From a virus, in IMG/VR virus record IMGVR_UViG_3300045988_046971, positions 1 to 39,555 of that record: DNA of 39,555 nt, one strand, 5' to 3'. Below are positions 2,024 through 35,830 of this stretch, piece by piece. Made by a program: the position numbers and the translations under genes. Position 1 is the first letter of the stretch, and each line of letters begins with the position of its first letter. The notes beneath the pieces are model-generated. The model worked only from the letters and a program-made list of their open reading frames with translations, was not told the DNA's origin and made no database searches.

Positions 2024-2323
2024 TCAGAGCCTGCCTCGGTCCCAGTTGCGCTCGTCCATACGCTTGATGGCGGCGTCGACTTCGCCCTGCGTGGCGCCTA
2101 CTGCCGCCAAAAGGTTAGCGACAGCCTGTACTGTGTCCATGCACTCATCGATGAGGTCCTCGCGGAATGCCCAGCGTATTGTCGTCGTGGCATATCGTGT
2201 GTCGTCGCACTTCTGCCACGCGCCGAACACCTCTGCGGCCTTCTCAAGTGGCTTGAGTGCCTGACCTTTGCTGTCCTTTACCTCATTGAACACACGCATG
2301 TTCAACAGATACCCGTCAATCAT
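2024..2323 (-). CDS. MazG-like all-alpha NTP pyrophosphohydrolase (candidate), paralog 1
   Basis: 99 aa; AGGA RBS. LEKAAEVF and DECMDTVQAV acidic helices, ending ERNWDRGRL. Clearly paralogous to the protein at 3341-3625. Confidence 0.4.
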   Translation of the reverse strand: MIDGYLLNMRVFNEVKDSKGQALKPLEKAAEVFGAWQKCDDTRYATTTIRWAFREDLIDECMDTVQAVANLLAAVGATQGEVDAAIKRMDERNWDRGRL

Positions 2324-2335
2324 CGTCTATCCTTT

Positions 2336-3163
2336 CTAAATACATTGGTCGATTACGGCCTTACCTCGCAGCTGGCCGATCCACTTTGGTGGGATGGCCT
2401 CGAAGCCGTAATACGTGCCGGCTAGCGCACCGGCGACTGCCGCAGTGGTGTCTGTATCGTCACCGAGGTTGACGGCTTTGAGCACACAATCTTCGTATGC
2501 GCTCGTATTCAAGAAACACCATAGCGCAGCCTCGAGCGTGTGCTCGCAGTAGCCGTCGCTTTTGACTGCATCGACGGGTCTCGACGCGATGTACCCGTAT
2601 CTATGCCAGAGGTCGCCCTTCGCCGGCGTGCCGACATTGCGGATAGTCCGCAAAATATCGCACAACGCAACGCATGACCACTCGGCCACTGGGTGTGCAT
2701 GGGTAATCGCCGAGACCTCGCGTATATCGTAGGGTTCGATGGGGTCGAGCATAGCGAGCGGTGCCGTCCTCATGAGCGAGCCGTTGCCGCAGCCGTCGTA
2801 TGACTTCGCAGGCACACCCATCGAGATCGCCTTCCGACATGTCATGCCGACGTCGAACGCACGCCCGTCACACGTGAAATCACCACGCTCCAGCCACCGG
2901 CGGAACATGTAGGCGATGTCCGCCACATCGATGTACCCAAGTCGCTTGATGCTCGCACATATGCACAGGGCCATCGACGTGTCGTCAGACCAAGTGCCGG
3001 CATACTGCTTATGTGTGCCGTCGCCGACCATGCCAGTGCATTCGAACGCGCCGCGCTCGCGGAACTCATATGGCACACCGAGGGCATCGCCGACTGCGAG
3101 CCCGTATATACATGAGCGCATGCGGTCCCTGTCATAATGCACACAATTATATGTGGTCGACAT
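2336..3163 (-). CDS. ADP-ribosylglycohydrolase (ARH/DraG family)
   Basis: 275 aa from ATG 3163 (AGGAGG RBS). Family motifs GLAVGDALGVPYEF, WSDDTSM, GNGSLMRTAPLA and LGDDTDTTAAVAGALAGTYYG (metal-binding Asp/Thr clusters). The ORF-track extension to 3271 is Arg/Ser-rich junk. Confidence 0.85.
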   Translation of the reverse strand: MSTTYNCVHYDRDRMRSCIYGLAVGDALGVPYEFRERGAFECTGMVGDGTHKQYAGTWSDDTSMALCICASIKRLGYIDVADIAYMFRRWLERGDFTCDGRAFDVGMTCRKAISMGVPAKSYDGCGNGSLMRTAPLAMLDPIEPYDIREVSAITHAHPVAEWSCVALCDILRTIRNVGTPAKGDLWHRYGYIASRPVDAVKSDGYCEHTLEAALWCFLNTSAYEDCVLKAVNLGDDTDTTAAVAGALAGTYYGFEAIPPKWIGQLRGKAVIDQCI

Positions 3164-3341
3164 AGCGCACCTCCTTCGCCTCATACTCGCCGACGGTGCC
3201 ATCCGCGAACTCGACGAGCCCGACGGGCTTCTGGTTGTTCCCGAGGAAACCGCCTCGCTGGAACCACCCAATCAAGCTGCCGTCGTGTCCATGCACCGTG
3301 ACCGGCCTCCGCTCCATGGCCACGACCACTTCAAGCTGCAT
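3147..3341 (-). CDS. Hypothetical protein (64 aa)
   Basis: ATG 3341 overlaps the upstream TGA by 1 nt. GAGGGG RBS. No family recognised. Confidence 0.55.
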   Translation of the reverse strand: MQLEVVVAMERRPVTVHGHDGSLIGWFQRGGFLGNNQKPVGLVEFADGTVGEYEAKEVRYVDHI

Positions 3342-3625
3342 CAATACCTACCCCTCTTCATGTTTCGTTTCTCGCAACGTGCCATCAGCTCCGACATATC
3401 ATCGATGCCGACCGATGCGACGCAGTTGACGACTGCTTGGATCACATCGGCGGCTTTGTCGAGCATTTTGTCGCGTGCCTTCGCAGAATACCTCTGGTTG
3501 TCGCGGCGCTGAATCCAAAAATGCCACGCGACGAAGAACTCCGCCGCCTCCTCAAGCGGTCTCGTGAATTGCTGCCGATCGTCGGCGTAGACATATTTGA
3601 ACGGCTTCACATCACCGATCCGCAC
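3341..3625 (-). CDS. MazG-like all-alpha NTP pyrophosphohydrolase (candidate), paralog 2
   Basis: 94 aa; GTG start 3625 after GGGAGG. LEEAAEFF and KAADVIQAV motifs, ending KRNMKRGRY. Collinear with the 2024-2323 product. Confidence 0.4.
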   Translation of the reverse strand: MRIGDVKPFKYVYADDRQQFTRPLEEAAEFFVAWHFWIQRRDNQRYSAKARDKMLDKAADVIQAVVNCVASVGIDDMSELMARCEKRNMKRGRY

Positions 3626-6615: not shown

Positions 6616-6645
6616 TATAATCTTGTCAACCACGAGGAAGGGAAA
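6616..6645 (+). promoter_or_regulatory. Divergent promoter/leader box copy 3 driving the only plus-strand gene
   Basis: The plus strand reads TATAATcttgtcaaccacgaggaagggaaacaccATG. It has the same TATAAT / cttgtcaacca / purine-rich RBS layout as copies 1 and 2. Confidence 0.5.
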
Positions 6646-6649
6646 CACC

Positions 6650-6895
6650 ATGACTAAGACTTTCGACGATGCCGTCAAGCTCGAGCGCGTCCAGTACAAG
6701 CAGCCGTTCAATGAGGCGTACGAAATCACCAACTGTGACCGCCGCGTGAAGATCGTCCTCGACGACAACTGCGTGCATTATGTCCGCTTTAAGGCAGCTA
6801 ACCGCGGTCAGTGGAAGTCAATGGGCCGCAAGGAGTTCGAGACCGCAAACAAGCAACTTTGCATCAAGAACGCCCTCAAGTGGGTCAACGCCTAA
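6650..6895 (+). CDS. Hypothetical protein (81 aa), the only plus-strand gene
   Basis: ATG 6650 after GAGGAAGGG. It has its own TATAAT box and its own downstream hairpin plus T-rich terminator. No family recognised. Confidence 0.6.
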   Translation: MTKTFDDAVKLERVQYKQPFNEAYEITNCDRRVKIVLDDNCVHYVRFKAANRGQWKSMGRKEFETANKQLCIKNALKWVNA

Positions 6896-6907: not shown

Positions 6908-6948
6908 TGATAAAATAGGAGGTGCGGTTTTGGGCCACCGCACCTTCC
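6908..6948 (-). terminator. Terminator for the minus-strand nucleotide-metabolism operon
   Basis: Stem aggtgcggt (6920-6928) / accgcacct (6937-6945). On the minus strand it is followed by CCTATTTTATC. Confidence 0.6.
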
Positions 6949-6960
6949 TCCATTGTGGGG

Positions 6961-7008
6961 AGAACGCCCCAGATGCAATTGAGCGTCTGGGGCGTTCTTC
7001 TATTTCTA
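6961..7008 (+). terminator. Terminator for the plus-strand gene 6650-6895
   Basis: Stem agaacgcccca (6961-6971) / tggggcgttct (6988-6998), followed by TCTATTTCT on the plus strand. It abuts the stop codon of the convergent deaminase gene. Confidence 0.55.
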
Positions 7009-7431
7009 TGCACCTGTGACGACATCGACGCCGGCGTTGCCAATCATGCGCATGCATACTGGGCACGGTGAGATCTCATTAGGCGGGATGCGCTCGCCTG
7101 TCTCGAGGTCGACACCGGCCAAGTACAGTGTCGCGCCGATCATTTCAGAGCGCGAGGCCGACAGCATCGCATTCATCTCGGCGTGCACCGCCGGGCATGT
7201 GCCATAGTCGCCGTCGTTATGCCCGTGCCCGCATCGATGGCATATGCCTGCGTCGATGCAGTTGACGTCCCCGCGGGCGGCGCCGTTGTAGCCGGTCGCG
7301 ATGATCTCGTCGTTGGCCACGACCACGGCGCCGTAGCGGCGGCGCAGACACGTCGACCTGGCCGCCACAGCCAGTGCGATATCGAGGTAATACTCGGCCT
7401 TACTAAGCCTCGCCGGTCGATCCGAAAGCAC
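7006..7431 (-). CDS. dCMP deaminase (CMP/dCMP deaminase zinc-binding family)
   Basis: HAEMNA and PCPVCMRMI zinc motifs, and STCLRRRYGAVVV. Start placed at in-frame GTG 7431 after GGAGAGGGG. The ORF-track start at 7515 (also GTG) would overlap dUTPase by more than 100 nt with junk sequence. Confidence 0.8.
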   Translation of the reverse strand: MLSDRPARLSKAEYYLDIALAVAARSTCLRRRYGAVVVANDEIIATGYNGAARGDVNCIDAGICHRCGHGHNDGDYGTCPAVHAEMNAMLSASRSEMIGATLYLAGVDLETGERIPPNEISPCPVCMRMIGNAGVDVVTGA

Positions 7432-7822
7432 CGTCGCCCCTCTCCTCGCCCAACTGCTCGACGAAGTCGGCCAACACGATGGGCATGACGACGAGTTGGC
7501 CGATGCGAGTGCCACCGGGGACCTTCTTCAACTTATCGGTCAAGTTGGTGACGATCGCATGCACTTCGCCGGTATAGCCGGAATCAATCGGCGGCAGCTC
7601 GCAGACGAGGCCTTCGAGGCTCATGCCCGATCGGGGGAATACGCAGGCCATGACGCCGTCAGGCAGCTCGAGCGAGAAGCCCAGCGGGATGCGGCGGGTC
7701 TCATGTGGCTTCAGGGTCTCGCCGAAAGTGGTGTAGACATCGGCACCGGCGTCGTTATAGTGTGCACGGGCAGGGAGTTTGATATCGGCGCCCTCTGTGA
7801 TACGGTTGATCTTAATTTTCAT
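7403..7822 (-). CDS. dut: Trimeric dUTPase-family dNTP pyrophosphatase
   Basis: 139 aa with five dUTPase motifs in order: AGADVY, PRSG, IDSGYTGEV, RIGQLVV and RGDGAFGSTG. GGAGG RBS. Confidence 0.85.
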   Translation of the reverse strand: MKIKINRITEGADIKLPARAHYNDAGADVYTTFGETLKPHETRRIPLGFSLELPDGVMACVFPRSGMSLEGLVCELPPIDSGYTGEVHAIVTNLTDKLKKVPGGTRIGQLVVMPIVLADFVEQLGEERGDGAFGSTGEA

Positions 7823-8630
7823 CGTTTACCTCCATGACAATAGCGTTATTGAGACAATATTCGGATACGGCAGGCCTCGGCTCATCAGACGACATAACGA
7901 TATGTTCGATTTCCGAGATATTGGCCAAAAACTTCTCGATGTCGAACTTGAGGCGTGGCGCGCCGTTGTCGACGCCCCAGACTTCATGGACCCTGTCGAT
8001 GTCTTTCATATACGCATGGAGCGACACCGCGAAATGCGTGTACTTGCCGTATGCGACACCGAGCACATTCGCGATATGCTTCTGCAGCTCCGTGAAGAAC
8101 ACGACGTCGTAAGGCGTGCCGAGCCAAATGTCGTTGGAGCGCATGATGCCTGTGCAATCGAGCTTGCCGTCGCGGAGCTCGAATACGAGGGCGATCGTGC
8201 AGATCTCGTCTTTCGTCTCGAAACGCCATGGGTTCGGCACGTTGAAATTGATGATCGCGCGGCGTGAACTCGGGTCACGCGTGAGCGTGTCGATGACCTG
8301 TTCGACCTGGTCGAAGCCGTAGCGGTTGAACACGATGGCGCCGTACGCCGACCGGTTCGTCACGCCGTTGTCGCTGATGTGCTTCCAAAACGACGAGAAC
8401 TTCGAGATGAAATCGACATCATCGCGGCCTGTGAAATACCATGCGAGCTCGCCCAGCATGTACGAGAGCGAAAAACTCGTTCGGACCGTCGCGATGTTGT
8501 CGGTGATATCTAGCAGTGTGAAACCACTATTGCACAGTTCTTTAGTGCCTGCAACCTCATGGCCTTGCACCGAGATCTTGCCGCAGAGCTGGCGGTAGAT
8601 GTCGTTCATCGACTTGCCTACAACATGCAT
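7812..8630 (-). CDS. Thymidylate-synthase-family pyrimidine C5-(hydroxy)methylase; candidate dCMP hydroxymethylase (gp42-like)
   Basis: 272 aa. Catalytic-Cys segment DEICTIALVFELRDGKLDCTGIMRSNDIWLGTPYD. The residue 31 positions after the Cys is Asp, as in T4 gp42 (D179), not the Asn of ThyA (N177). MRSND and ELAWYF..FW...NSAYG-type segments resemble my recalled gp42 sequence more than ThyA. Confidence 0.6.
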   Translation of the reverse strand: MHVVGKSMNDIYRQLCGKISVQGHEVAGTKELCNSGFTLLDITDNIATVRTSFSLSYMLGELAWYFTGRDDVDFISKFSSFWKHISDNGVTNRSAYGAIVFNRYGFDQVEQVIDTLTRDPSSRRAIINFNVPNPWRFETKDEICTIALVFELRDGKLDCTGIMRSNDIWLGTPYDVVFFTELQKHIANVLGVAYGKYTHFAVSLHAYMKDIDRVHEVWGVDNGAPRLKFDIEKFLANISEIEHIVMSSDEPRPAVSEYCLNNAIVMEVNDEN

Positions 8631-9094
8631 TTCAAAACCTCCTTAATACACCAATCGACGTCATTGTCGTCCAAAGTGATCACACTACTATTCGCGGCGG
8701 CGAACTCCTCGTAACGACGATAAATGAGCCCGATATTATCGGTGATGACGTCGCCGAACTCGTCGCCGCGTAGCGTGAGGCGCCGTACCACCTCAGCGAG
8801 CGGCGGTAACACGATGACGATCGGGATGCCTAAGACAGAACACATATAAGTCAGTTTCTCACACGCATCGTTGTCGATACGTTGGGTGCGGCCAAATATA
8901 TCGGCGTAAACTTGTTCGCTGATCCAGCAGCGGTCGATCACGACGCCGTCACATGCGAGCTTTTGCATGTACTCGGTGGCCGACTGTCCGCCGTTGCACG
9001 TCATTTTTAAGATGTTCATGTCGAGTTTATCGGCGAGCGCCTTCGCGAGCGTGGACTTGCCGGCGCCGTCAGGGCCTTCGATGATGATAGGCAT
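8618..9094 (-). CDS. Thymidylate-kinase-like dNMP kinase (P-loop)
   Basis: 158 aa from ATG 9094 (AAGGAG RBS). The N-terminal IIIEGPDGAGKSTLAKAL is the TMK-type P-loop. Confidence 0.7.
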   Translation of the reverse strand: MPIIIEGPDGAGKSTLAKALADKLDMNILKMTCNGGQSATEYMQKLACDGVVIDRCWISEQVYADIFGRTQRIDNDACEKLTYMCSVLGIPIVIVLPPLAEVVRRLTLRGDEFGDVITDNIGLIYRRYEEFAAANSSVITLDDNDVDWCIKEVLKCML

Positions 9095-9096
9095 AA

Positions 9097-10980
9097 TTAC
9101 TCCTTCGTAAAAACACGTACACGTTTGCCGTTGATACGGCATGTCTTGCTTGCCAAGCCGTAGTGTTTGTTGGCCTGGCGGGTGAACTCGTTTTGACCGA
9201 GCGGCTTCAGGTTGTTCCTGATCGCCCAGGCCATATAGTAGTCGTACACAAGTGCCGTCGACTCGTTCACCACCTCGTCGACGGGCGTATCCTCGAAGTA
9301 ACCGAGGACGGGGTTGTTGGCGACGTGATAGTCCTCGATCTCCTTGACGACGACTTCGGGCATCGTGAATGAGCGGTTCGCCAAAACACGCTCAAGCCCC
9401 TTGAGGCCGATATTGATCAAGTGGCTCATGACATCAGGCGAATGGAGCTTGTACTTGATATATGGGTCGAAGTCCGGGTCGTCTTTAGAAAACGTCGCCT
9501 TGAACGGCACGAGCACGATGCGGTCGAGTACGGCACCGGTCTTGTCCCTGATGCGTGGCATGGAATTCGCCGAGAACAACAGCTTGGCGTAGCTGGCGAA
9601 GTCGAACGGGTCTTGTCCCTTCCGTTCGGCATTGACGCGGTCGCCGCTGACGAGCTTCTTGAAAATAGCGGGGTTCGCGATGAACTCGTCGCCGATGTCG
9701 TCGCCAATGTTGGCCAGTTTGCCGAATAGCTCCGCCGTCTTGAATCGCTCACCGAGTTCGGCCAGATCGAGGGCTGACGTATTGCTGTCGCCGAGCAGCG
9801 TCTTGAGCATGTCGAGGTAGGTCGACTTGCCGTTCGCCTTGTCGCCGATAAGGATGAAACTCTTGCGGAGCTCATTGCGCCTATAGAACAGGTAGCCGAT
9901 GACCTCCTCCAGCAAGGCGTAGATCCCGTCGTCGTCGCAGGCGAGGCGCCGCAGCGTCTTGTCGGTGAACTCCGACCAAATCGTCGGGTCATACTCCCAT
10001 GGGATACGGTTCGTGATCACGAACTCCGGCGAGAACGGCTCGAGCTCGCCTGTCTTGATGTCGTATACGCCGTTGGCGAATGCGATGTAGTCGGCGTCGG
10101 CCGCAGGGGCGTCGTCTTGGATGAGCACATCGAGGTAGTTGAGCACCTCGGTGCGCTTGGCCTTCGACAACATAGGCAAATGCCGGATCATCGCGTTCTC
10201 GATGAGCAGATTGCCGGACACATAGACGCCGTCGCGGTATATATGGAGCTGCCGGCCGATCTTGACGATACGGTGCTCGTTCTTGAGGTATTCGGCGAAC
10301 TTGTCGAACAGGAACGTGCCTTTGTTGAAAAACACGTCTTCGGCAAAAGCGTCGTCGCGGTAGACGACGCTCAGCTCTTGCTGCTCCATAGGCTTCTCGA
10401 ACATATACCGGTTGATGATGTCCAGGGTCTCACGCGCCTCGTCTTTCGTGAAACCTTCCGATTGCAATGTCAAGATGTAGTTGAATAACGCTTGGTTGCG
10501 GCCGTCGCCTTCTTCCATCTCACCGAACTCAGGTGCGTACTGCACAGGCCTGAGCCAACACGGCAGCTCGTCGTAACTTTCGTCCGGCTCGATGTCATAG
10601 GTCACATCGCGCTCATGGCCATCGACTTTCAGGCTGCCATATGTGGCTTTCGACCCGACTTTGATGTCGGCTTCGATGCCTATCGCCAGGCGTACGTGAG
10701 TCTTGCATTTCATACCGCGGGGGTAGCCGACGAAATAGAAATGCTTGCCACGAGTCGTCGCGATGACCTTGCACGCAATTTGCTCGGCCTCGATGATGTC
10801 CATCAGCTTTTCGCTCTGCGCCATGTCGTCGACATCGACGAAAATCGTCTCAGGTGCCAACACACCGCCGTAACCATCGAGCTTGCGCGCCTGGGCCAAT
10901 GTGAGGTACTGGCCGTCCTTCAGCTTCTGCGCGCACTTCTTGCCGTTGAGTTTCACATAACCGAGAAATAGCCGGTCCAT
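9097..10980 (-). CDS. Primase-polymerase / P4-D5-type helicase fusion (replicative primase-helicase)
   Basis: 627 aa from ATG 10980. N-terminal prim-pol motifs (FVDVDD, TTRGKHFYF). C-terminal Walker A GDKANGKST and the layout of phage/plasmid primase P4-family C-terminal domains. Confidence 0.8.
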   Translation of the reverse strand: MDRLFLGYVKLNGKKCAQKLKDGQYLTLAQARKLDGYGGVLAPETIFVDVDDMAQSEKLMDIIEAEQIACKVIATTRGKHFYFVGYPRGMKCKTHVRLAIGIEADIKVGSKATYGSLKVDGHERDVTYDIEPDESYDELPCWLRPVQYAPEFGEMEEGDGRNQALFNYILTLQSEGFTKDEARETLDIINRYMFEKPMEQQELSVVYRDDAFAEDVFFNKGTFLFDKFAEYLKNEHRIVKIGRQLHIYRDGVYVSGNLLIENAMIRHLPMLSKAKRTEVLNYLDVLIQDDAPAADADYIAFANGVYDIKTGELEPFSPEFVITNRIPWEYDPTIWSEFTDKTLRRLACDDDGIYALLEEVIGYLFYRRNELRKSFILIGDKANGKSTYLDMLKTLLGDSNTSALDLAELGERFKTAELFGKLANIGDDIGDEFIANPAIFKKLVSGDRVNAERKGQDPFDFASYAKLLFSANSMPRIRDKTGAVLDRIVLVPFKATFSKDDPDFDPYIKYKLHSPDVMSHLINIGLKGLERVLANRSFTMPEVVVKEIEDYHVANNPVLGYFEDTPVDEVVNESTALVYDYYMAWAIRNNLKPLGQNEFTRQANKHYGLASKTCRINGKRVRVFTKE

Positions 10981-16796: not shown

Positions 16797-17107
16797 ACAC
16801 CTGTCACACTGTCAAACACCTGTCAAACGGCTGATTTCAGGCCTGTTTGACAGTAAGTCGCATCACTACGTCGCATTTCTCGCCTCCTGTCACACTGTCA
16901 CACAGTTTTCTCCCCTATCCTTAGATAATTTGACTTTTATATCTATATAAGGTCTATTAGATATATAGATAAAAAATATCTAATATAGGGGCCCCTTGTT
17001 GTTTGACAGCTTGACAGGTGATGAGAAACGCGAGATAGAAATGCAAACACCTGTCACACTGGCCCTTTTAGGAGTGTGACAGGTGGTTGACACTGTTTGA
17101 CAGGTGA
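16797..17107. promoter_or_regulatory. Iteron + AT-rich module B (origin-like or operator array)
   Basis: 12 TGTCA(C/A)AC or G(T/G)TTGACA cores at 16802, 16810, 16821, 16845, 16888, 16896, 17001, 17011, 17052, 17074, 17085 and 17095. AT-rich core at 16906-16991 ending aaaatatctaatatagggg. 13-bp inverted repeat cacctgtcacact (17048-17060) / agtgtgacaggtg (17073-17085). Collinear with 39285-39500 plus 1-115. Confidence 0.65.
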
Positions 17108-17110
17108 TAA

Positions 17111-17416
17111 CTACCGTAATGCGTAGATCTGGGACATGACGACGCCATACTCTTTAGGGCACACGGCTTTTATACATTCCATGTGTTTGTCGAGTATTCC
17201 CATGAGTGCCGCGTAGTCCACACTTGACGCGGCTTCTAAGAAATCAGACCCCGTGAGCGCATCGGTCTTCTGTGTCGACATTGCCATGGGCTGCATATTG
17301 CTTTTGAGGTGGTCGCGAACGATGTACAACCATGCCAGACGCTCGCATACGGCATAAGACGTATCGCGCTTCTCCAGGTTGAGGATCTCCTCTTCGATGG
17401 TCTCAATTGATACCAT
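17111..17416 (-). CDS. Hypothetical protein (101 aa), last gene of the late block
   Basis: ATG 17416 after GGGGTGA. No family recognised. Confidence 0.6.
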   Translation of the reverse strand: MVSIETIEEEILNLEKRDTSYAVCERLAWLYIVRDHLKSNMQPMAMSTQKTDALTGSDFLEAASSVDYAALMGILDKHMECIKAVCPKEYGVVMSQIYALR

Positions 17417-17998: not shown

Positions 17999-18170
17999 CT
18001 TTACCTTCTCTCAATTCGTCCAATATACTTTGCAAAAGGGATGCCTCGACGGCATCCCTTTCTTTAGCCCTGGCCAATATCTCGCGGTTAACTGCAAGGT
18101 TCTCCATGTTGACCATGAAGTTTGCCATGTTGATCGCCAAGATACTGTGCCAGAACTCCTGTTCTGTCAT
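17985..18170 (-). CDS. Hypothetical small helical protein (61 aa)
   Basis: ATG 18170 overlaps the upstream TAA by 1 nt. The ORF-track extension to 18272 lies inside the 141-aa gene. Confidence 0.5.
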   Translation of the reverse strand: MTEQEFWHSILAINMANFMVNMENLAVNREILARAKERDAVEASLLQSILDELREGKDAGN

Positions 18171-18595
18171 TAGAGTTTCGTGACGACGACCGCGGTGTTG
18201 TCGATCGTGACGGTCGCCGGAACAGTCGCGCTGGTGATCACGAGTGTAAGCGTCGAGGTGCTGTCGCAGCACTGGTTACGCACGATTGCCGGGATATTGA
18301 CCGACACAGTGCCCGCAGCTGCCGCAGTGATGGTCTGCATGGCGCCGGGCACGGCGACGCCGTCTTTGAATAGTGTGACGGTATATGCACCGGCAGCAGT
18401 AGGCGTGAACGTGACACTGGCATCGACATCGAAATAACCCTGACCCTTGAGCAGGACGCCGTTACCAGACAGGACGGCATTGCAGCCGAAACGACGGACA
18501 GTCGTACCGAGCGGGATAGCCGTACCGGCAGCCGTAGACAGCGTGAGCACGGTACTAGACGGGTCGGCAGTGTAGATTGCAGATTTGCACGACAT
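18170..18595 (-). CDS. Stand-alone BclA-C-terminal-like (TNF/C1q-like beta-sandwich) protein, candidate
   Basis: 141 aa; AAAGGAT RBS. The GYFDVDASVTFTPTAAGAYTVTLFKDGVAVPGA...NIPAIVRN...LTLVITS...VVVTKL pattern parallels my recalled BclA C-terminal domain (GFYKITV...LTIQVNGVPVPGT...IIIEKV). Confidence 0.45.
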   Translation of the reverse strand: MSCKSAIYTADPSSTVLTLSTAAGTAIPLGTTVRRFGCNAVLSGNGVLLKGQGYFDVDASVTFTPTAAGAYTVTLFKDGVAVPGAMQTITAAAAGTVSVNIPAIVRNQCCDSTSTLTLVITSATVPATVTIDNTAVVVTKL

Positions 18596-33211: not shown

Positions 33212-35830
33212 TTATTTGTATTTGCTCTTCGAGCCGGTCCACTCTTTGGGATCCTGCTGGAACTTATCGTAACCCTGTTCGGGGTGCAATTCCATCACGA
33301 CATGCATCTTGCCGTCGGTGCCCTTATATACGTCGGTCGCCGTGTAGTAACCGCCGCGCTGTAGAATCATCTCCGACTCGTGACCGAAACTTTTTTGTTC
33401 CTTCTTACCATCCCAGCTATGCCCGCTGTAGTTGGCGCCAGAAAACGCTGAAAATGGCTCCGCGTACATCATCTCAGACCCAGCCGGGCAATAGATTTCC
33501 ATGGCGACAGGCTTGCCGCTGAAACCCTTACCCTTCGCCGTACCGGTTGACACGAACGATTGAATGCGGTTCGACATACCGACGAGCGATTTGAGCTCAT
33601 CAGTATCCATAGAATACAACTCCGATGCATCTATGCCAAAGAACGATTCCATAGCGTTGTAATCGCAACCACGTACGAGCCATGTATCGTGATCATACGA
33701 TGATTTCTCAATGATCTCAGTCATGCGGCGGATCGCGGAGCCCTTGCCCTCAAAATCGATCCACACGTTGCCGACACCCTTGTAGAACTTCTTCTCCCAA
33801 CCGGAACCACCCTGCGACCACGGCTTCTGGAAACCGGACAGCGGGCGGTTCCACGCACCCGAGCTCTGAGTATAGCCGTAAATGCCGTCGCGTTGTGACT
33901 TGGTGGCTTCGCGCCAAACCTTGCCGCTCACGCCACGGAAATGCTCGTCGGCCTCGGCGGGCGAGGTGAACCGCCATGCGTTTGCCTTGCGTTCCTCGCT
34001 GAACGCAGAATCTTCAATGAGTCCGAGGTCGACCATCTGCTTGTGGATCGACTGCCGCTTGAGCTTCAACGTAGCCATGTTGTCGACATGTGCCTTATAT
34101 GCTTGGCCCTGCTTATCGAAATCATCGACATCGTCAATGAGCGTCTGCCACTTCACCAATGCTGCATCGTCGCCGGCATCCATGGCCTTTGACGCCTGCT
34201 CTTCGAAATACTCGAACTTCTTGGGGATCGCCTCTTTCTTCGCATCCCAATCGGCGAGCGTCACGGGGTCTTTCCAGATGCCCGAATATGTCTTATCGGA
34301 ACTCTTCATGAGCTCTTTCAGCACGTCGATCTCGTTGTCGACATCCTTCAGCTGACTATCGAGTGAATTCGCGAGCTTCTGCTCTTTCGTTAGCTTCTCT
34401 GCTTTCCATTCCTCATAACTCATCTTGCCGAGCTTGTTTGCCCGCTCGACCTCGTCATACTCTACGTCGCCGATAACGGGCACGAGCGTGCAGCGGCAAT
34501 TGTAGACCTCAGAGGCAGGCCCATCCGGGTCACCCGGGTACTTCAGCCCGTTGCTGAACTCGGCGTCGAGCTTGACCACTTCGCCGTCGAGGTGGCGATG
34601 GCTGCCGCGCGTACGCGAGTCGAGTGCCGCGAGCCATTGCTTTTCGACGTCGATACCCATACCGGCGGCGCGCTCGTAGCCCTTGAGCTTACCGAGCGAG
34701 TGCGCACTCGTCATGGCAGTGCGTGCCGCCTTCATCGCAGCGCGCTGGTCCATGGCGGCGATGCCTGCGATCGATGCGGCGAGCTGCGGGATCGTCTGCC
34801 CCTGCAGTACTGCCTGCGTCACCGCAGACGTGACGTGGCGGCTGTTCCATGCTGTGTCCTTCGCCTTGTCGAATGCCGCATGCGGGAGCAAATCGGGCTC
34901 GTTCGCGACGAGCTCCATGACGGTGTTCTTGTTGTACAGCGTGAACGACGTGTTCGCCTTGGCGCCGTGTTCGATCTCATACGTCGCGAAGTTCATGCCC
35001 TCTGCATACACGCCTGCAGGCACTTGGTTGACATACGCCATCGCCATCTTGTCGGCGGCAGTGAGGTCCTGCGTCAACGCTTTCTTAAGGGCTTTAAGCT
35101 GGTCATTATGCAACACCTGGTCCTTGCGCCAGGCAGCATATGCCTTAGCGTCCTTCTTGCCCGCGGCGACATCTGCCTGCCATTTAGCATCATCGGCCAC
35201 GAACTCCTTGAGCGAGGACTCAATGCGGGAGGTCATGCCGTCGATCGCATTGGCGTAGGTGAGCTGCAGCTTCCCCTGCAGCTCCTGCGCCTGCTTCTCA
35301 AGCAATTTGGCCTGGGTGCTTTCCTGCGACTTCGCTGCCTTCGCGGCGAGTTTCTTGCCTGCCTTGCCGGCACCGTCCTTCGACTTGTAGCCGTTCTTGA
35401 AAGTGCCGTCGGGCATCAGGTAACCGTAAGTGCCGTCCGTGAATGTGTTAACGGTATAGCCGCCTTTGTCCTCACTCTTCAGGACCTGCGGGCCCTTCGG
35501 CTCTGCGGCGGCGAGCTTGGTGGCTGCCTTCTTGGCGCCGTCTTTCGACTTATAGCCCTCCTTGTGCTTGCCGCCGTCCGTCATGTAGCCGTAAGTGCCG
35601 TCTGAGTACGTATCGATCTGGAAGCCGTCGAAGTATTGCGTCTTGGTGACGGCCGCAGGGCCTGCGGCTTCTTCCGGCACGAGCTCATACCCGCCGAATT
35701 CCAAGGCGAGTTCGATCGCTTTCTCTTTCGTGGGGAATGATGACGGCGTCGTATAGCCTGCGCTCGTCACATACTTCCACCCAGAACCATCCTGGATAAC
35801 GGGGATCTCGTCGATTGAATGGATCTTCAC
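33212..35830 (-). CDS. MuF/SPP1-gp7-like minor head protein fused to a C-terminal ADP-ribosyltransferase (R-S-E type) domain
   Basis: 872 aa; GTG start 35830 after AAGGTGG. MuF core LDSRTRGSHRHLDGEVV...YNCRCTLVPV (aa ~255-455). C-terminal domain has LVRG (R720), VSTG (S761-T762) and HESEM (E818-x-E820), preceded by YGYTQSSGAWNRPL. Confidence 0.8.
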   Translation of the reverse strand: MKIHSIDEIPVIQDGSGWKYVTSAGYTTPSSFPTKEKAIELALEFGGYELVPEEAAGPAAVTKTQYFDGFQIDTYSDGTYGYMTDGGKHKEGYKSKDGAKKAATKLAAAEPKGPQVLKSEDKGGYTVNTFTDGTYGYLMPDGTFKNGYKSKDGAGKAGKKLAAKAAKSQESTQAKLLEKQAQELQGKLQLTYANAIDGMTSRIESSLKEFVADDAKWQADVAAGKKDAKAYAAWRKDQVLHNDQLKALKKALTQDLTAADKMAMAYVNQVPAGVYAEGMNFATYEIEHGAKANTSFTLYNKNTVMELVANEPDLLPHAAFDKAKDTAWNSRHVTSAVTQAVLQGQTIPQLAASIAGIAAMDQRAAMKAARTAMTSAHSLGKLKGYERAAGMGIDVEKQWLAALDSRTRGSHRHLDGEVVKLDAEFSNGLKYPGDPDGPASEVYNCRCTLVPVIGDVEYDEVERANKLGKMSYEEWKAEKLTKEQKLANSLDSQLKDVDNEIDVLKELMKSSDKTYSGIWKDPVTLADWDAKKEAIPKKFEYFEEQASKAMDAGDDAALVKWQTLIDDVDDFDKQGQAYKAHVDNMATLKLKRQSIHKQMVDLGLIEDSAFSEERKANAWRFTSPAEADEHFRGVSGKVWREATKSQRDGIYGYTQSSGAWNRPLSGFQKPWSQGGSGWEKKFYKGVGNVWIDFEGKGSAIRRMTEIIEKSSYDHDTWLVRGCDYNAMESFFGIDASELYSMDTDELKSLVGMSNRIQSFVSTGTAKGKGFSGKPVAMEIYCPAGSEMMYAEPFSAFSGANYSGHSWDGKKEQKSFGHESEMILQRGGYYTATDVYKGTDGKMHVVMELHPEQGYDKFQQDPKEWTGSKSKYK

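Follow-up and report, generated by a model that had tools for sequence, protein, structure and literature searches.

Does a small siphovirus of the human gut build 5-hydroxymethylcytosine (5hmC) into its DNA, and by which enzymes would it do so? The question is raised by four genes at positions 7006-9094 of the IMG/VR record IMGVR_UViG_3300045988_046971, a stretch of 39,555 nucleotides (the window, in what follows) which represents an almost complete phage genome of ~39.6 kb, with nearly all of its genes on the - strand. The identical sequence was recovered from human gut metagenome contigs (ERR636403 / PRJEB7369). The four genes, all on the - strand, encode a nucleotide kinase, a member of the thymidylate synthase (TS) family, a dUTPase and a dCMP deaminase; they fill the interval exactly, overlap one another by 13, 11 and 29 nt, and lie directly 3' of the genes for the DNA polymerase and a D5-type primase-helicase. 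An earlier sequence-only reading had assigned a cytosine-modification operon to precisely these coordinates, which agree exactly with the bounds of the open reading frames (ORFs), and had joined to the TS homolog a TMK-like kinase, a dUTPase-family enzyme and a dCMP deaminase; all three were borne out by family matches and by the gene overlaps. The reading that we favor, and that we regard as probable, is that the four-gene module makes 5-hydroxymethyl-dCTP and that the phage DNA carries plain, unglycosylated 5hmC.

Diagnostic residues of the TS-family enzyme

The TS-like protein matched PF00303 (E 4.2e-25, 88.8 bits against a cut-off of 24.3, residues 40-247) and remained far below the cut-offs of all eight NCBIfam thymidylate-synthase models (32-74 bits against cut-offs of 108-576), the best of these scores being 73.9 bits against a cut-off of 174.55. 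Its top relative in the PDB is the CMP hydroxymethylase MilA, at E 6.5e-28, as compared to E 2.6e-16 for the best true TS.

The positions of individual residues were read in two ways, from a MAFFT alignment and as fixed offsets from the catalytic Cys, and the two were in agreement; the gp42 and ThyA reference sequences used were 100% identical to PDB chains 1b49 and 1aob. In the large MAFFT alignment the ThyA Leu143 column was shifted and displayed a Thr, and for this position the fixed Cys-3 offset was used, as in the published rule. The catalytic Cys144 of the window enzyme corresponds to Cys146 of ThyA and Cys148 of gp42, and the residue 31 positions further on is Asp175, which corresponds to ThyA Asn177 and gp42 Asp179. 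The presence of an Asp at this offset had been the central claim of the sequence-only reading, together with the equivalence of the ThyA and gp42 residues; both hold when read in either way with the PDB-verified sequences, and the alignment against gp42 and ThyA places Asp, not Asn, at the specificity position. The N-terminal layout which it had described as MRSND and ELAWY...W...NSAYG is also legible, as MRSND, GELAWY, FWKHI and NRSAYG.

An Asp at the ThyA-177 position selects dCMP (PMC8670742; PMC13326640), and Asp177 and a residue other than His at position 147 show the strongest association with virome contigs whose cytosine is modified (PMC8670742). In the window enzyme the ThyA His147 position is occupied by Thr145. 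An acidic residue at Cys-3, together with a Ser/Thr-x-Tyr motif, is the signature for addition of water over hydride transfer (PMC6400193; PMC13326640), and the D145N mutant of the T4 dCMP hydroxymethylase is inactive and forms no 5-hydroxymethyl-dCMP (5hm-dCMP) (PMC6400193); here the Cys-3 residue is Asp141 (Leu143 in ThyA), and Ser94-Ala95-Tyr96 provide the motif. Flavin-dependent 5-hydroxy-dCMP synthases are marked by an Asn at the ThyA-169 position (D169N), and the window enzyme has Asp167, not Asn, at this place. MilA owes its ribo-specificity to Lys133 and Ala176 (PMC5175136); the corresponding residues in the window enzyme, Arg123 and Ser165, are of the deoxyribose type. Residues E61, Y96, R123/R124, C144, R164, H205 and Y207 fall in invariant columns of the alignment, the further signature residues listed being D141, T145, S165, D167 and D175, and the C-terminus conserved in TS is absent according to the MAFFT alignment. 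Three control enzymes were read at positions 143/147/177: Leu/His/Asn were found in ThyA, Asn/Pro/Asp in the 5-methylcytosine (5mC) enzyme of Xp12, and Asp/Asn/Asn in the enzyme of the ViI-like Serratia phage IME250, which is presumably a dUMP hydroxymethylase.

A scan of 1.84 billion representative proteins yielded 9,244 family members, 134 of them at E <= 1e-30. Asp175 is retained in 117 of the 120 closest homologues and Asp167 in 118 of them, and 144 of the 150 best representatives agree at all five of the Cys-3 Asp, the catalytic Cys, the Thr at ThyA-147 and the Asp residues at ThyA-169 and ThyA-177. Since Asp175 is so widely kept, and the five-residue signature with it, its presence in the window enzyme is not a matter of chance. 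Every sequence test run supports 5-hydroxymethyl-dC rather than 5-methyl-dC as the predicted product. The sequence-only reading had left the choice between the two open; the residue signature, the likeness to MilA and the relatives in phages VPE25 and VFW described below support its proposal and would narrow it to 5hmC.

As a side observation, a gene of Agathobaculum phage AB434P2 (locus L004, 3838-4500) is annotated as a 'deoxyuridylate hydroxymethyltransferase', and its product carries Asp both at ThyA-177 and at Cys-3; by the published rules this enzyme should act on dCMP, and the annotation is probably wrong.

The linked kinase, dUTPase and deaminase

The start of the kinase gene was set at the ATG used by independent gene calls, which gives a protein of 158 aa; the longer ORF, 8618-9142, encodes 174 aa, and phrog_761 ('thymidylate kinase') covers residues 19-159 of this longer product at E 5.9e-16. 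The family matches of the kinase are TMK-like, and its best PDB match is SPbeta YorR (2axp, E 1.3e-6), over the full length. No chain of the T4 deoxynucleotide kinase, the gp1 type, was seen among the 60 PDB matches listed (to E 0.23).

The dUTPase matched PF00692 (E 4e-21, 75.6 bits against a cut-off of 22) as well as 68 dUTPase sequences in the PDB at E up to 1e-5 (best E 3.9e-19), and the five dUTPase motifs are legible as AGADV, PRSG, IDSGYTGE, GTRIGQL and RGDGAFGSTG; the positions of the uracil-contacting beta-hairpin are too variable among known dUTPases to separate a dUTPase from a dCTPase. The deaminase matched PF00383 (E 3.7e-17, 62.5 bits against a cut-off of 25), its PDB matches are all dCMP deaminases (2hvv, E 2.2e-12; T4 cd, 1vq2, E 5.8e-11), and the zinc motifs HAE and PCxxC are legible in VHAEMNA and PCPVCMRM.

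Cultured relatives, gene order and fusion proteins

The closest cultured homologues of the TS-like protein are those of Enterococcus phages VPE25, VFW and their relatives, with 43% identity over 96% of the protein; the homologue in Lactobacillus phage ATCCB is 51% identical. The diagnostic residues of the window enzyme are identical in the VPE25 and ATCCB enzymes. VPE25 carries, in this order, a kinase-like ORF, the TS homologue, a dUTPase and a beta-glucosyltransferase, and in ATCCB the beta-glucosyltransferase follows directly upon the kinase-like ORF and the TS homologue. When compared to its VPE25 neighbors, the window dUTPase is 54% identical and the kinase 27% identical over 81 aa. DNA of VPE25 and VFW withstands bisulfite conversion as well as EcoRI and MspI, and PvuRts1I cleaves it, which its authors read as glucosylated 5hmC (PMC4999554).

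The replication genes of the window resemble those of Paenibacillus phage LincolnB (polymerase 51% identical), in which no modification cassette follows the primase. As a similar replication backbone occurs without the cassette, the four-gene block looks like a mobile module.

In at least 22 of the 150 nearest representatives the TS-like domain is naturally fused with a kinase homologous to that of the window, the kinase domain being N-terminal in four of them and C-terminal in the remainder, and in one further protein the TS-like domain is fused to a TET-associated glycosyltransferase (TAGT) domain, PF20691 (fusion proteins include P0245, P0246, P0257, P0291, P0302 and P0357). TAGT is a family of 5hmC-type DNA glycosyltransferases. 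The two types of fusion argue that the kinase family works on the product of the TS-like enzyme, and that the product of this clade would be a hydroxymethyl acceptor.

Proposed pathway

According to the pathway that we propose, Cys144 of the TS-like enzyme would attack C6 of dCMP, and the enzyme would draw a one-carbon unit from methylene-tetrahydrofolate; Asp141 would then place a water molecule at the exocyclic methylene, without hydride transfer, to yield 5hm-dCMP and tetrahydrofolate. The release of tetrahydrofolate would make a dihydrofolate reductase (DHFR) unnecessary, and the absence of such a gene fits a hydroxymethylase. The TMK-like kinase would convert 5hm-dCMP to the diphosphate, the host NDP kinase would convert this to 5hm-dCTP, and the phage DNA polymerase, whose gene lies just upstream, would insert it into DNA. 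The dUTPase and the deaminase would hold dUTP down and shunt part of the dCMP to dUMP for the host thymidylate synthase, as T4 cd does, and dCMP may be produced from dCTP by one or both of two MazG-like proteins. Family membership, diagnostic residues, operon structure, a gene order shared with experimentally modified phages and the kinase and glycosyltransferase fusions are what the sequences show; which product is made, what the kinase acts on, how far cytosine is replaced and what the dUTPase, the deaminase and the MazG-like proteins do is inferred from them.

Pfam and/or PHROGs searches of essentially every ORF in the window found no glycosyltransferase, DNA methyltransferase, carbamoyltransferase, ThyA/ThyX or DHFR. 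The remark of the sequence-only reading that no glycosyltransferase is evident is thereby confirmed, and since none is encoded the DNA would carry plain 5hmC. The module would then be the known anti-restriction strategy of T4 and VPE25 in a new lineage, without an enzyme that adds a sugar.

The same reading had mentioned two MazG-like pyrophosphatase candidates nearby, which are most likely two paralogues, encoded 3.4-5 kb downstream of the operon, whose products are 36% identical (E 5e-15). Some features are suggestive: the 2024-2323 product has ExxxE and ExxxD motifs and the 3341-3625 product an EEAAE motif, a protein in nr that is 96% identical to the former is labelled 'triphosphate pyrophosphohydrolase', and the AlphaFold2 (AF2) model of the former is a three-helix bundle (mean predicted local distance difference test score, pLDDT, 80.5) for which Foldseek against the PDB returned many DCTPP1/RS21-C6, HisE, iMazG and DR2231 structures. 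Neither product has a Pfam, PHROG or NCBIfam match, a profile search of the two against PDB sequences gave noise (best E 0.38), and the Foldseek matches are all non-significant (E>2, template modeling scores of 0.4-0.6).

Weighing of alternative explanations

The main rival is a dCMP methyltransferase of the Xp12 type, by which C would be converted to 5-methyl-C while the linked deaminase makes dTMP from 5-methyl-dCMP. The TS of Xp12 likewise adjoins a deaminase, the deaminases of the NEB screen that acted upon modified C were linked with TS homologues that form 5mC, and an Asp at ThyA-177 would by itself allow methylation, as the TS mutants N177D/N229D methylate dCMP according to work that is cited in PMC8670742. 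We nevertheless consider a methyltransferase unlikely: the Cys-3 residue is Asp rather than the Asn of Xp12 or the Leu of ThyA, and D145N kills hydroxymethylation in T4; the residue that follows the Cys is Thr and not Pro or His; the window enzyme is only 26% identical to that of Xp12, as against 36% for MilA and 43-51% for VPE25/ATCCB; the operon of Xp12 has a DHFR beside its TS and deaminase, and none was found in the window; and the TAGT fusion within the enzyme clade speaks against 5mC. It is also improbable, in our estimate, that 5hmC is an intermediate, either modified further by an unrecognised enzyme or in part deaminated to 5hm-dUMP, with a different or mixed modification as the outcome. 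A modifying enzyme could hide among the ~20 ORFs of the window that have no family assignment, some phage dCMP deaminases act on 5hm-dC nucleotides according to a published screen, and loss of the deaminase tracks loss of the active site (see below); yet no transferase fold or family was detected in the window, the 5hmdU-producing deaminases of that screen were all linked to 5mC-type enzymes, and several relatives have an intact enzyme and no deaminase.

Three further explanations are far less credible. That the enzyme is an ordinary thymidylate synthase is suggested by the automatic JGI annotation of its relatives ('thymidylate synthase') and by the fact that TMK, TS, dUTPase and dCMP deaminase are exactly what a dTTP pathway needs; the replacement of Asn177 by Asp, His147 by Thr and Leu143 by Asp, the scores below every TS cut-off, the missing C-terminus and the nearest characterised relatives, which are hydroxymethylases, make such a dTMP-supply operon highly improbable. 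Scarcely more can be said for a flavin-dependent 5-hydroxy-dCMP synthase of the RB69 gp48 / DLP3 gp80 type, which belongs to the same superfamily and shares the N177D and acidic L143 substitutions (PMC13326640), as the diagnostic D169N is absent (both from the window and from nearly all close relatives) and no arabinosyl- or glycosyltransferase or NDP-sugar genes were found in the window. Finally, the module may be vestigial in the window phage, with no DNA modification at all, and the frequency of changed core residues and the elevated rate of protein change described in the next section would fit this; we hold it to be very unlikely, because the window copy and 64 of 69 related contigs keep all core residues, the gene is still under strong purifying selection, and all four genes of the window are intact and overlapping.

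Hydroxymethylation of dCMP by the four-gene module, the reading that we prefer, has points of its own against it. It is a prediction from sequence. The rules on diagnostic residues are correlative, with few characterised enzymes behind them, and pairs of TS and deaminase are also typical of 5mC phages. For the TS-like enzyme, AF2 started from few and closely related homologues and gave a model with a mean pLDDT of 50.8, too poor for the active site to be read. The kinase resembles known kinases mainly in its P-loop, the one part that Pfam recognises, and 5hm-dCMP is a putative substrate. The MazG-like assignment is weak, all Foldseek E values being above 2, and constitutes a lead and not a finding. 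Lastly, no dCTPase, host-DNA nuclease or dC-exclusion function was recognised among the window ORFs, and the replacement of cytosine could therefore be partial.

Variation among related contigs

The conservation of the module was followed in 69 related contigs with a near-full-length enzyme gene, collected from IMG/VR, ENA/JGI and Logan, to which L088 and L089 were added later. The polymerase, primase, dUTPase and deaminase of these relatives are 91-99% identical to the window proteins, with a ratio of nonsynonymous to synonymous change (dN/dS) of 0.03-0.08 (0.03 for the dUTPase). The TS-like gene is more variable (79-93% identical), and its dN/dS of ~0.12-0.15 is 3-4 times that of the neighboring genes; by this value it is under purifying selection. 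The kinase occurs as two allele classes, ~97% and ~65% identical to the window copy, where the polymerase and primase are ~95% identical (loci L010-L082); the kinase allele is unlinked to the TS variant, which points to recombination between the two genes.

Among the 120 closest protein clusters, 47 are altered at one or more of nine core residues of the active site, and in 23 the catalytic Cys is replaced (by Arg in 15, Tyr in 5, Phe in 2 and Gly in 1). Damage is rarer among the assembled contigs, in which the active site is affected in 5 of 69 and the core is intact in the other 64; the window copy has all core residues intact. Five independent lineages with a damaged active site (L010, L012, L070, L088 and L089) carry substitutions of the Cys to Tyr or Arg, of Tyr207 to Cys or His, and of His205 to Tyr. 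Hypermutation or a sequencing artefact as the source of the many transition-type changes at catalytic positions of the homologues was considered and rejected: dS is similar in all six genes (0.39-0.59, the two-class kinase apart), transitions prevail in the conserved neighbors to a still greater degree than in the TS gene, and dN/dS lies well under 1.

The deaminase behaves as an accessory cassette, present in most relatives and cleanly deleted in some. It is deleted, truncated or internally deleted in all five of the damaged-enzyme lineages and kept in 38 of 42 deduplicated lineages with an intact enzyme (Fisher p = 8e-5). This paired loss suggests a functional tie between the enzyme and the deaminase, and the module appears to be dispensable in some settings. 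It is plausible that pressure from modification-dependent defences would drive the loss. A wider scenario, which we put forward tentatively and consider possible but doubtful, is that of a gut lineage with unglycosylated 5hmC whose natural populations are polymorphic for the modification; the repeated knockouts of the enzyme (Cys to Arg, Tyr or Phe), joined by loss of the deaminase wherever the surrounding contig is known, would be the footprint of an arms race in which 5hmC shields the phage from classical restriction and exposes it to modification-dependent defences.

Two observations concern L010, a relative that has neither the Cys nor the deaminase. At 16961-17284 it carries the C-terminal remnant of a C5 DNA cytosine methyltransferase, with the motifs RRLTPRECERLQGFP and KAIGNSMAVPV, and in this position the window has an unrelated zinc-ribbon ORF. 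At 18082-18543, upstream of the small terminase gene, lies a tandem-repeat, AT-rich non-coding stretch, which may be a packaging or origin region.

Features of the window

The coordinates of the operon genes and of related features are listed in Table 1.

Table 1. Operon genes, hairpins and pyrophosphatase candidates of the window, with the basis of each assignment.
Feature	Positions	Strand	Basis and reading
P-loop nucleotide kinase, TMK/YorR-like, 158 aa	8618-9094	-	phrog_761, YorR match, fusions; proposed dedicated 5hm-dCMP kinase
TS-family enzyme, 272 aa	7812-8630	-	PF00303, MilA match, residue signature; predicted dCMP hydroxymethylase (5hm-dCMP synthase)
Trimeric dUTPase-family pyrophosphatase, 139 aa	7403-7822	-	PF00692, PDB dUTPases, VPE25 neighbor
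dCMP deaminase, 141 aa, GTG start	7006-7431	-	PF00383, PDB dCMP deaminases, zinc motifs
Second hairpin, 19 bp	6958-7001	+	consensus scan
Terminator-like hairpin at operon end	6920-6945	-	9-bp stem (6 GC pairs) followed by a T-run; consensus scan
Paralogue of the candidate MazG-like protein, 94 aa (weak)	3341-3625	-	
Candidate MazG-like (all-alpha NTP pyrophosphatase), 99 aa, possible dCTPase (weak)	2024-2323	-	

The terminator-like hairpin lies ~60 nt past the stop codon of the deaminase gene. A lone conserved ORF on the + strand (6623-6895, 81-90 aa), for which no family match was obtained, separates the nucleotide operon from the next block of - strand genes, and the hairpins at 6920-7001 sit between its stop codon and that of the deaminase. 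When 6.2 kb of the region were compared by megablast with 50,697 phage records, no match was obtained, which indicates that the phage has no close cultured relative among them. The host is probably Gram-positive, on the basis of the lysins (amidase and GH25/CW_7/LysM) and of the relatives among Firmicutes phages.

Elsewhere in the window, an 872-aa minor head protein (33212-35830, - strand; Mu F / SPP1 gp7-like) has a C-terminal ADP-ribosyltransferase toxin domain (PF03496, E 2.6e-10; phrog_16625), and an ADP-ribosylglycohydrolase (PF03747, E 1.5e-58) is encoded in the early region (2336-3163, - strand); the two may form a virion-delivered writer with its eraser. An 85-aa zinc-ribbon protein (1353-1610, - strand) has a weak match to Lar restriction alleviation (PF14354, E 5e-4, below threshold).

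Implications

If the prediction is true, a common small siphovirus of the human gut carries plain 5hmC in place of cytosine, and its DNA would behave differently in restriction digests, in CRISPR targeting, in methyl-sequencing (bisulfite or enzymatic) and in the base-calling of gut viromes by nanopore. The pathway of the T4/VPE25 type would also be found on a new replication backbone, in the form of a compact and apparently mobile four-gene cassette; the known chemistry and logic of phage DNA modification would be unchanged. The TS-kinase fusions independently support the idea of a kinase family that is dedicated to 5hm-dCMP and unrelated to T4 gp1, and this family could serve engineered modified-DNA systems. 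The paired loss of enzyme and deaminase is a natural experiment on when DNA modification pays and, should the arms-race scenario be correct, strains with an intact and with a knocked-out enzyme would provide natural isogenic controls for the costs and benefits of modification in the gut.

Comparison with known systems

The 5hmC set of T4 consists of the dCMP hydroxymethylase gp42, the dNMP kinase gp1, the dCTPase/dUTPase gp56 and the dCMP deaminase cd. The module of the window would share with it the hydroxymethylation of dCMP before replication, phosphorylation of the product and control of the nucleotide pools. The claim of the sequence-only reading that the operon functionally mirrors the T4 set holds in part: the TS-like enzyme is a homologue of gp42 and the deaminase one of cd, whereas the kinase and the dUTPase are analogous only. 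All catalytic and signature residues are common to gp42 and the window enzyme, although the two are just 26% identical, over 140 residues; the deaminase is related to cd at E 5.8e-11. Unlike gp1, the window kinase is TMK/YorR-like and, unlike gp56, the operon enzyme is a trimeric dUTPase and not of the all-alpha MazG fold. No equivalent of the T4 alpha- or beta-glucosyltransferase, Alc or DenB was recognised in the window.

MilA, the CMP 5-hydroxymethylase of mildiomycin biosynthesis (PDB 5b6d), is 36% identical to the window enzyme over ~207 residues and has the same Asp/Asp/Thr signature. It differs in its preference for ribo-CMP (Lys133 and Ala176, against the deoxy-type Arg123 and Ser165) and in its setting, which is an antibiotic gene cluster and not a phage replication operon.

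VPE25/VFW and ATCCB are siphoviruses of the Gram-positive type with homologous genes in the same order. Their genomes are larger (80-86 kb, compared to ~39.6 kb) and a beta-glucosyltransferase follows the cassette, whereas the window phage has a dCMP deaminase in the position of the glucosyltransferase and a LincolnB-like replication module; the DNA of VPE25/VFW is glucosylated 5hmC by restriction and bisulfite tests.

The contigs of the MetaGPA studies (PMC8670742, bioRxiv 2024.12.05.627091) share with the window Asp177, a non-His residue at position 147, a deaminase within 3 kb and, sometimes, a nearby protein of the MazG/PRA-PH type. They originate from sewage and seawater and many are of the 5mC type, whereas the window represents a lineage that is abundant in the human gut, its signature is of the hydroxymethylase type, and a kinase and a dUTPase are linked to the enzyme. 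The pairing of an Asp-type TS with a nearby dCMP deaminase has been published as a hallmark of phage contigs with modified cytosine (70% against 6%), and the predicted module fits this published association on modified virome contigs.

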